Source of the DNA: Escherichia coli
Lineage (GTDB): Bacteria; Pseudomonadota; Gammaproteobacteria; Enterobacterales; Enterobacteriaceae
Direction: 5' to 3' (one strand)
NCBI RefSeq assembly: GCF_002854065.1
Contig: NZ_CP024147.1
DNA length: 64,000 nt
Shown here: piece after piece, positions 40,980-42,668 of the stretch
Numbering within the stretch: the first letter of the stretch is position 1
How the letters are laid out: every line of letters begins with the position of its first letter
Translations under genes and position numbers: made by a program
Notes under the pieces: model-generated
What the model saw: only the letters and a program-made list of their open reading frames with translations
Database searches by the model: none
What the model was told of the DNA's origin: nothing

Positions 40980-41922
40980 CTATTATCCATAAAGATAATT
41001 CAATGTGTCGCTTTGGAATATCAAGCGTAGCTACTAACTTCTCGATAAAATCAACCTGAGATACTGTTCCTTTAACAAGTAAACTGTTGGTATCAGGATA
41101 TGCAATAATTTGTATATCGTCAGTCTCTGGCGCTCCTGCTGTCGATATTATTTTCTCTACTTGTAGGTCATCATCTTCTTCAGCACCAGGAAAAGGAGGC
41201 ATACGTGATACGTTTTTTAGTTGTTGACGACTTGAAATTTCAGAAAGTACGTTCACCCCTGTGCTTTGCTTAATGTTATTATTTAACAACGTCGATAGTA
41301 CTTTTGCCATGCCAGGAATAATTATCTTTTCGCCACGTAACTCATAAGTCCGGTCATTAACGAATGTGTTGACCAGATGAATTATTCCTACTTTATTTCG
41401 ACCGATCTCAATGCCATCGCTGTTTTGCTCCATTAATTTCGCAGCATTAACGACCAGGTCAACATAAACCGGTGGCCCCGATACATAGAAAGTACCATTG
41501 CCGCCCCCTTTAATTTCATAACGAGAGTTATACAGACCCGATTTTTTTAAGAAATTATTAAACTCATTCGTCGATACCTTTCTCAGATTAATCAATGCAT
41601 TACGCATCTCTGATGAGTCATAGATATAAATAGCTTTGCCATCATCATACCAAATAAGCCCAATCTGTGCCGACAGGCGTTCAATCAAGGCATAGGGTTC
41701 TGTTAAATCAAAATTCCCGCTGATCTGTTTCTTCATGGCAAGCTTACTAACTATTGTAGGCTTACCCGCATATGATGAAACCGTTTCAAAAAAACTACGT
41801 AGATTTTCTTTATTTGCTACGTATCCATTCGCTGCTGCGGCATATGCACCAGGAGTCAATAATCCATTAAAAATGCATAAGACTGAAATTAATATAATAG
41901 TAATGCGTAATTTTATTTTCAT
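40980..41922 (-). pseudogene. eivG: 5' fragment (about 314 codons) of a type III secretion secretin (InvG/EivG-like), truncated by IS1
   Basis: Product MKIKLRITIILISVLCIFNGLLTPGAYA...GLIWYDDGKAIYIYDSSEMRNALINLRKVSTNEFNNFLKKSGLYN...TFYVSGPPVYVDLVVNAAKLM...IIAYPDTNSLLVKGT...KRHIELSLWI is recognised as secretin N-terminal/N3 domains; the frame runs into the IS1 end at 40979 and lacks the C-terminal secretin domain. Confidence 0.8.
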
Positions 41923-42668
41923 AACTTTTTACATAGTTCTCTCGGTATTTTTCCTAACCGGCTTTTTACTTCGGCTGAAAAGTGTGATGAGGACGAGTAA
42001 CCATATTTATGCGCAATAGTTGTCATATCACTGTTTCCTTCAATCATTTCCAACACGGCTCTGGCAACTCTCCAGCCACATAATTCCGTTTTAACTTTAC
42101 CACCCAATGCATAACTACATAAACGGCGAAAATGTGAATACGATACGCCGTAAAGATCACCAAGATCATAGAGTGAAGTCTGTATGAGCGATTGCGATAA
42201 TAAATAACGAACCAGTTTATAGCATTCTGTTTTTCTTAGATGCTGAAACAGGATTTCATTAATATTATCGCTGCTCAGATAAGTGGCTAAAAACCAGGCT
42301 TCACTTGCAACTTTACTGAATAGCACAACTTCTGATGCAAAGGGCAAGGCATCAGCAAACAATTCATGATGTTCCCTTTCCACACTCCCCGTTGATTCAT
42401 CTATAAAAGCTAATAATTTACTCAGGATATCAATGCGAAGTGGATGATAAATTACTTTCCCTGCAGTTACCTCAATTTGGCTTCGGTCAATGAGCAGTAA
42501 TATATCTTCCACTACCATTAATTTTTGATGGTTATTACCAATCGTAATAACAAGGGTTACATCCTTGTTTTCATTTCCCCGTAAGAACCACATTTCAGGG
42601 TCCAGTAGGGTTAACTTCTGTCCTTGAAGCAAAACATTCATTGGAAGTAACAGCCCTTCTTCAATCAT
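41919..42668 (-). CDS. eivF: AraC-family transcriptional regulator, InvF-like (ETT2 EivF)
   Basis: 249-aa ORF with AAGGAG Shine-Dalgarno; C-terminal AraC HTH (GVSYSHFRRLCSYALGGKVKTELCGWRVARA...YGYSSSSHFSAEVKSRLGKIPRELCKKL); TGA overlaps the eivG ATG (ATGA), the same arrangement as invF-invG. Confidence 0.8.
   Translation of the reverse strand: MIEEGLLLPMNVLLQGQKLTLLDPEMWFLRGNENKDVTLVITIGNNHQKLMVVEDILLLIDRSQIEVTAGKVIYHPLRIDILSKLLAFIDESTGSVEREHHELFADALPFASEVVLFSKVASEAWFLATYLSSDNINEILFQHLRKTECYKLVRYLLSQSLIQTSLYDLGDLYGVSYSHFRRLCSYALGGKVKTELCGWRVARAVLEMIEGNSDMTTIAHKYGYSSSSHFSAEVKSRLGKIPRELCKKL

Follow-up and report, generated by a model that had tools for sequence, protein, structure and literature searches.

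An intact copy of eivF, the gene for the InvF/MxiE-type AraC-family regulator of ETT2, was found in the 64-kb stretch of Escherichia coli DNA analysed here (the window). It probably outlived a nested series of IS1 deletions by accident and is likely to be silent, without activator function and dispensable. The features of the locus, from one border of the island to the other, were as follows.

38015..39244, plus strand: yqeG, a 409-aa amino-acid permease (Pfam Trp_Tyr_perm), a backbone gene and the left border of ETT2

39421..40188, minus strand: IS1 copy a, 768 bp, a simple insertion in the yqeG-yqeH spacer

40198..40211, no strand assigned: native yqeG-yqeH spacer between the IS1 copies, 14 bp (AGATTCGCAAGATA), continuing the ES5 spacer (GATGCATAACTTAGATTCGCAAGATA)

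40212..40979, minus strand: IS1 copy b, at the deletion junction, with the yqeG-yqeH spacer on its left and eivG codon 314 on its right

40975..41922, minus strand: eivG', a 3'-truncated secretin (SctC/InvG homologue) pseudogene, 315 aa

41919..42668, minus strand: eivF, 249 aa with an ATG start, an intact InvF/MxiE-type AraC-family regulator

42669..43013, minus strand: native intergenic DNA upstream of eivF, 345 bp retained, ~32% G+C

42676..42681, minus strand: Shine-Dalgarno AAGGAG, 7 nt before the eivF ATG, read from the sequence

43014..43193, minus strand: small ORF of 59 aa, a GhoT/OrtT-family toxin (ECs3735/ydcX-like) by annotation in relatives

43260..44870, minus strand: GH15 glycoside hydrolase gene (pkgA-like), intact, with the frame open to 44939

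44912..46242, plus strand: IS2, inserted 41 bp before the GH15 start and flanked by a 5-bp target duplication, AACCA

46440..46513, minus strand: tRNA-Gly(CCC) gene glyU, where ETT2 integrated and has its right border (ARAGORN, Rfam)

A megablast comparison with 5,426 complete E. coli genomes identified the region as eivF and sctC/eivG of ETT2 at up to 99.8% DNA identity. The gene shared 99.6% DNA identity, 99% protein identity and its neighbourhood with ETT2 eivF, and near-identity together with synteny identifies it as that gene. It corresponds to ECs3734 of O157:H7 Sakai in its position by eivG on the glyU side, its start, its ribosome-binding site and its overlap with eivG; the window copy differs in carrying E171D, I208M and T241I and in being without the rest of the island. 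These substitutions were seen in a full-length, gap-free alignment to RefSeq WP_000568782.1 (246 of 249 residues identical), and the exact protein is on record as WP_101969505.1, named EivF. The initial annotation had described a 249-aa AraC-family ORF with a full helix-turn-helix (HTH) domain, a strong AAGGAG Shine-Dalgarno sequence and an ATGA overlap with the secretin fragment, all of which was borne out. The TGA stop of eivF and the ATG of eivG share ATGA at 41919..41922 (a 4-nt overlap), as they do in the intact ES5 locus. Alignment to EivF, which had been proposed as a check, revealed no frameshift or truncation, and the protein was collinear with 248-257-aa homologues of Yersinia, E. 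fergusonii, Chromobacterium and Burkholderia.

Pfam placed HTH_18 at EivF residues 173-245 (E 1.7e-10, above the cut-off), with HTH_AraC also matching, and both Pfam and the structural model gave the C-terminal ~100-aa DNA-binding domain with two helix-turn-helix motifs that characterises the AraC/XylS family. The top NCBIfam match was the InvF equivalog model (182 bits, E 1.2e-53; EivF residues 48-246 aligned to positions 10-208 of the 216 in the model); because this score lies below the equivalog cut-off of 259 bits, EivF is a homologue of InvF and not an InvF equivalog. Salmonella SPI-1 InvF was represented by this model and by the comparison with MxiE (37% identity over residues 62-245), the homologue search having returned no InvF. 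Identity to Yersinia and Burkholderia homologues was 38-56% over the full length, and an alignment of EivF with 17 homologues contained 37 invariant columns. Full-length similarity to InvF, MxiE, YsaE and BsaN thus places EivF in the InvF/MxiE subfamily. It resembles these regulators also in its two-domain predicted fold and in its context, as the first gene of an inv-like operon directly 5' of the secretin gene.

The DNA upstream of eivF matched ES5 contiguously at 99.6%, with one lineage-specific base change at 42808. A consensus scan for promoters and terminators over 40900..43300 returned 8 promoter-like sites, no excess over the 9.4 +/- 3.5 in shuffled sequence, and was therefore uninformative on the eivF promoter. 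Across the whole window Rfam reported only OmrA, OmrB and tRNA-Gly, none of them near eivF. The 59-aa GhoT/OrtT-like ORF had no NCBIfam match. The RefSeq start of the GH15 gene in ES5 (L007 36267, L007 being the ES5 locus) corresponds to window position 44870, and the IS2 junction was shared with a public contig, L003 (run ERR3970133). The gene glyU has been named as a neighbour of ETT2 (PMC11068852).

The loss of the island was read from the two junctions with ES5. On the left, 36001..39420 was 99.7% identical to ES5 and comprised backbone through yqeG plus 176 bp of the yqeG-yqeH spacer. The first IS1 copy is flanked by a 9-bp target duplication (GCATAACTT, 39412..39420 and 40189..40197) that agrees with the uninterrupted ES5 spacer, and no target duplication was present at the second. 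The three IS1 copies in the window are 100% identical, and copies a and b have the same orientation. On the right, 40980..44911 corresponds to L007 32377..36308, and the left side stops at L007 8846, so that 23,530 bp are missing from the window. The missing DNA holds yqeH, yqeI, yqeJ, yqeK, ygeG, ygeH, the LuxR-type gene ygeK, an etrA-like regulator gene, all epr/epa/eiv apparatus genes as far as eivE and the 3' portion of eivG. No portion of it was found elsewhere in the 64-kb window, and the earlier statement that the secretion apparatus is gone holds for the locus and for the rest of the window alike. What is left of the ETT2 operon is the first 1.7 kb of eivFGEA..., that is, intact eivF and eivG'; beyond it the right end of the island is retained, with the ghoT-like ORF, the GH15 gene and glyU. 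The sole reason for the survival of eivF is the position of the deletion endpoint, 0.94 kb downstream of the gene. An IS1 anchor in the yqeG-yqeH spacer would have generated nested deletions, one of which would have ended by chance beyond eivF.

The closest relatives, ranked by 25 kb of IS-free flanking core DNA, form a set of nested or independent IS1-adjacent deletions. The nearest complete genomes were CUWW06 (100.0%), 100416 (100.0%) and GDSC2227PM (99.9%). All three are E. coli strains, and the exact EivF protein is on record for E. coli, which speaks against the Shigella origin that the density of IS elements had suggested. CUWW06 has the window's left junction of IS1-a as well as the private SNP of the lineage at 42808. 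Its IS1, however, abuts nucleotide 73 of eivF: 73 nt of eivF are left, and eivG' and codons 25-249 are gone; its GH15 gene was lost separately. Since it carries the same IS1-a insertion, it probably descends from the window's arrangement. In 100416 the left junction of IS1-b (L007 8846/8847) is identical and the right side is eivA; this genome keeps eivA', eivE (with a frameshift) and the 3' portion of eivG, and an IS3/integrase-bearing segment on the glyU side replaces eivF and the 5' end of eivG. GDSC2227PM has a different IS1, 195 bp deeper in the spacer, and is entirely without ETT2 DNA. A functional eivF was thus present in none of these three relatives, which carry three distinct IS-mediated deletions.

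Published work on regulation bears on what the surviving gene would do. In EAEC 042, mutation of ygeH lowered the expression of eivF and mutation of hns raised that of ETT2 genes (PMC4210603). Loss of YgeH, the activator needed in that strain, would leave eivF poorly expressed, and the ETT2 remnant, at 32-39% G+C, would be of the type of DNA silenced by H-NS. InvF, MxiE, YsaE and BsaN are active only in complex with a chaperone (PMC4236580), and in ETT2 the homologue of MxiE is EivF and that of IpgC is YgeG (PMC9241512). On that homology YgeG is the predicted co-activator of EivF, and the window differs from the systems of these regulators in that ygeG is deleted; without this TPR chaperone EivF would be inactive as an activator. 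A tblastn search with YgeG found no YgeG-like protein in the 64-kb window (best E 0.06), nor was a cognate class II (TPR) chaperone of the SicA/IpgC/SycB/BicA type found within it. In the only published test, EivF and YgeG failed to activate the MxiE targets icaR and icaT (PMC9241512). A different chaperone (EicA, from the eip locus) or activator (EilA) could be encoded outside the window. We know of no EivF box or direct target. With YgeH and YgeG lost and the remnant in H-NS-type DNA, eivF is expected to show low expression and no activator function and to be selectively neutral in the window lineage, which would place it at an early stage of pseudogenisation.

Several observations count against a silent remnant. 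The ORF is unbroken, its ribosome-binding site and upstream DNA are preserved, and the junction of eivG' with IS1 was found together with intact eivF on at least five other public contigs (short; Logan/ENA), so the state is stably inherited and the lineage is present outside the source genome. Moreover, YgeH of EHEC O157 is reported to be non-functional (PMC4210603), and EivF lowers LEE expression there, EivF and EtrA both acting on LEE (reviewed in PMC3977695, PMC11068852); eivF is therefore expressible without a working YgeH. By analogy, the orphan EivF may retain a residual effect in trans.

A stronger form of this idea, that the orphan EivF is a working trans-acting regulator kept by selection and modulating genes outside ETT2, was considered unlikely. 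It has precedents in EHEC O157, where EivF lowers adherence and the expression of LEE, and in APEC, where it affects serum resistance and colonisation, and cross-talk from degenerate ETT2 clusters has been published (PMC3977695, PMC11068852). The initial annotation had likewise suggested that an orphan regulator could act on promoters elsewhere, an idea already in print for EHEC O157 in the same two papers and hence not new. The intact gene and upstream region are in its favour, as is the inheritance of the arrangement across several sampled isolates and metagenomes. However, the survey of the 5,426 complete genomes argues against selection for the orphan state. Full-length eivF was carried by 982 genomes and the 3' half of eivG by 981, and 981 of the 982 full-eivF genomes carried the eivG 3' half; an orphan eivF is thus very rare, and eivF is not preferentially kept during decay of the island. 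It is ygeG that is preferentially retained (3,548 genomes), so that the usual ETT2 remnant keeps ygeG without eivF and the window lineage is the rare reverse. Only a short 5' stub of eivF was left in ~329 genomes. No complete RefSeq genome had the window's junction of eivG' with IS1; in strain MEW an IS1 truncates eivG independently, at codon 382. An orphan eivF is not a recurrent selected state. Also against a selected regulator, CUWW06, a sister strain, probably lost eivF once the orphan state already existed, 100416 and GDSC2227PM are likewise without it, the changes on the branch to the window lineage are 3 nonsynonymous and 0 synonymous, and both YgeH and the predicted co-activator YgeG are gone.

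Sequence variation in eivF was compared with that in ten other strains (98.1-99.6% DNA identity). Polymorphism among these alleles was synonymous at 16 sites and nonsynonymous at 1, with 8 of the 10 encoding WP_000568782.1, which indicates strong purifying selection on EivF where the island persists. This near-invariance of the protein across divergent E. coli argues that EivF is functional wherever the island persists, and the 16:1 ratio, a point for the trans-acting regulator, favours a role for the protein. On the branch to the window lineage, by contrast, the private changes in eivF were 3 nonsynonymous and 0 synonymous (Fisher p = 0.0035), all in the DNA-binding domain; the counts are small, and a nonsynonymous excess is expected on very recent branches anyway. 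Slightly deleterious mutations that selection is generally slow to remove could account for the excess on so short a branch, in place of relaxed constraint. Three of six private mutations fell in eivF, which makes up 25% of the 2,989 bp compared, a density that was not significant (binomial ~0.17, an estimate). The closest of the 982 complete-genome copies differs by at least 3 nt (99.6%), so at least one of E171D, I208M and T241I is absent from each of them. The changes I208M and T241I are common to the other contigs with the window's junction, and E171D is private to the source genome, where it is the sole difference from contig L003 in 3,988 bp. The earlier remark that the gene looks functional stands for the ORF, ribosome-binding site and upstream region, but is not borne out by the context, given the deletion of ygeH and ygeG, the 3:0 private changes and the relatives without eivF.

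The three substitutions were located on an AlphaFold model of EivF (pLDDT 87, pTM 0.80), which has two domains and a Rns/ToxT-like fold by Foldseek. Compared by sequence with solved structures, EivF gave only a weak AraC-domain match (3oou, E 0.004), whereas the modelled DNA-binding domain superposes on its counterparts in MarA, SoxS and AraC at ~2-3 A rmsd. The modelled helices are 166-173/177-188 and 215-221/227-238, with a long helix, 192-210, between them. In the model, residue 171 belongs to helix 1 of HTH1, residue 208 lies where the helix linking the two HTH motifs ends, and residue 241 caps the final helix; the predicted recognition helices (177-188 and 227-238) contain none of the three. 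Position 241 is Thr or Ser in 15 of 17 homologues, and T241I, in taking away this conserved helix cap, looks mildly destabilising and not specificity-changing. Position 171 is variable among the 17 homologues, with Asp occurring naturally in distant ones, and E171D is a conservative change. The placement outside the recognition helices and the natural occurrence of Asp-171 also count against a silent remnant.

Two further readings assign these substitutions a purpose. That EivF, left without island, activator and chaperone, has become a stand-alone chromosomal regulator, with E171D, I208M and T241I adapting it to chaperone-independence, is improbable; if true, it would be a natural case of a T3SS regulator domesticated after loss of its machine. 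Still less credit is given to the three changes in the DNA-binding domain being adaptive in themselves, by retuning EivF to new promoters or to chaperone-independent activity. All three are nonsynonymous and confined to residues 171-241 of an otherwise almost invariant protein, and all sampled members of the lineage carry two of them. However, the counts are tiny, about three-quarters of random changes are nonsynonymous under neutrality, so that 3:0 fits relaxation equally well, and the changes avoid the recognition helices, E171D being conservative and T241I mildly destabilising in appearance; the sister strain, moreover, discarded the gene.

The secretin fragment beside eivF would encode residues 1-314 of the 567 of EivG (313 of 314 identical), followed by Gly and a stop from the IS1 inverted repeat. 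The cut follows codon 314 at 40979/40980, position 40980 being the first eivG base beyond IS1. Pfam found the SPI-1 secretin N0 domain and Secretin_N but no match to the secretin domain, and the TIGR02516 score of 216.5 was below the cut-off of 238.45. The N-terminus resembles a Sec signal peptide (MKIKLRITIILISVLCIFNGLLTPGAYA/AA), as judged by eye. The initial annotation was thus right that only periplasmic N-domains are encoded, but its term 'decapitated' named the wrong end, since it is the 3' or C-terminal half, with the beta-barrel secretin domain and the S domain of the outer-membrane ring, that was lost. By inference eivG' is a pseudogene, and its transcript would continue into IS1: transcription from the retained eivF promoter would yield full-length EivF and a periplasmic N0-N1-N3 secretin stub and run into IS1 in the sense direction. 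That eivG' is functional, as a secreted periplasmic N0-N1-N3 fragment coupled to eivF with a new role, is hardly credible: its 314 native codons are open, the apparent signal peptide and ATGA coupling are kept, and an identical 315-aa product with the same IS1 junction occurs on the contigs mentioned above, but its end is set by an IS1 terminus with an IS-supplied stop codon, similar fragments are annotated as pseudogenes in RefSeq, CUWW06 has deleted it, and the partner ring proteins are absent at the locus. On that reading the role of the fragment might be, for example, interference with another secretin or service as a peptidoglycan- or inner-membrane-ring-binding module.

Both the gene and the process are already known: EivF is a named and studied regulator, and the mutational attrition of ETT2 is well documented (PMC11068852). 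Isoforms produced by 'mutational attrition' were reportedly described by Ren et al. in 2004, as types A-K by Cheng, and in APEC. The window resembles them in the IS-associated partial loss of the island with intact flanking backbone, as in most E. coli (PMC11068852). It differs in extent: the reviewed isoforms are without 3-13 genes or 5-9 kb (PMC11068852), whereas the window is without 23.5 kb and keeps the extreme right end only. Common reduced forms of ETT2 keep ygeG and lose eivF, and the window shows the opposite. The 2024 review does not list the right-end-only isoform, which is a trivial variation on a known type.

The locus illustrates, cleanly and at good resolution, how nested deletions from a single IS1 anchor wear away a horizontally acquired island, their endpoints deciding which genes survive. 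The window lineage would also provide a natural background for asking whether EivF can act without YgeG or YgeH.

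The following mobile elements and small genes were located in the window:

28267..28354 and 28470..28551, minus strand, OmrA and OmrB sRNA genes (Rfam), sited as usual between aas and galR, an unremarkable result
39421..40979, a pair of IS1 elements, identical and in direct orientation, separated by 23 bp
43014..43193, minus strand, 59-aa ORF, whose counterpart in relatives bears the annotation GhoT/OrtT-family toxin (ECs3735, ydcX-like)
44912..46242, IS2, with a 5-bp duplication (AACCA)
47435..48202, third IS1, identical to the other two, located between actS (ygeR) and xdhA and flanked by a target duplication of 9 bp

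The count within 9 kb is thus three copies of IS1 and one of IS2. The left copy of the paired IS1 is flanked by a 9-bp target duplication, and the right copy forms the deletion junction. One or other of these copies is also present in relatives, where the right-hand partners differ, which suggests that serial IS1-adjacent deletions have proceeded from this site. The third IS1 is lacking in the closest complete-genome relatives (CUWW06, 100416, and GDSC2227PM) and is therefore a recent insertion. IS1 was also observed in eivG, the secretin gene of ETT2, in other strains: for two of the megablast matches to complete E. coli genomes (H25 and H26), the aligned parts and feature lists indicate that it lies within the gene, and it truncates the gene at codon 382 in strain MEW. 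A further match (H2) holds one IS1 somewhere in the matched 2.4-kb span. IS1 may insert preferentially into this AT-rich gene.

The IS2 lies on the upstream side of a GH15 (pkgA-like) gene, 41 bp from its annotated start, and the element has probably cut this gene off from its own promoter; the same IS2 junction was also found in a public contig (L003, run ERR3970133). In CUWW06 the GH15 gene is deleted and IS2 instead adjoins the ghoT-like ORF, which is kept even there, with IS2 sequence in place of its start. Between IS2 and glyU, the tRNA-Gly gene at the right border of ETT2, CUWW06 carries 294 bp (7927..8220 of its locus, L016) that matched neither the window nor the intact ETT2 locus of strain ES5, so that the right flank of IS2 also differs from that of the window, suggesting a further rearrangement at that flank. 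For the ghoT-like ORF in the window, no NCBIfam match was obtained and no obvious partner gene adjoins it.

Across complete E. coli genomes, ygeG (a predicted chaperone gene of ETT2) was detected in 3,548 compared with 982 for eivF, and approximately 329 carry only a short eivF 5′ stub. Among the six such genomes listed, the stub is 113 nt long and adjoins a FHIPEP (eivA) gene, apparently representing a common ETT2 deletion isoform. Among the eivF alleles of the other strains (L007-L015), 16 synonymous sites were counted to one nonsynonymous site, and the EivF protein is nearly invariant among strains whose eivF DNA differs by up to 1.9%. At the level of these alleles, the ratio of sites indicates that EivF is under strong purifying selection, despite the name of ETT2 as a degenerate island.
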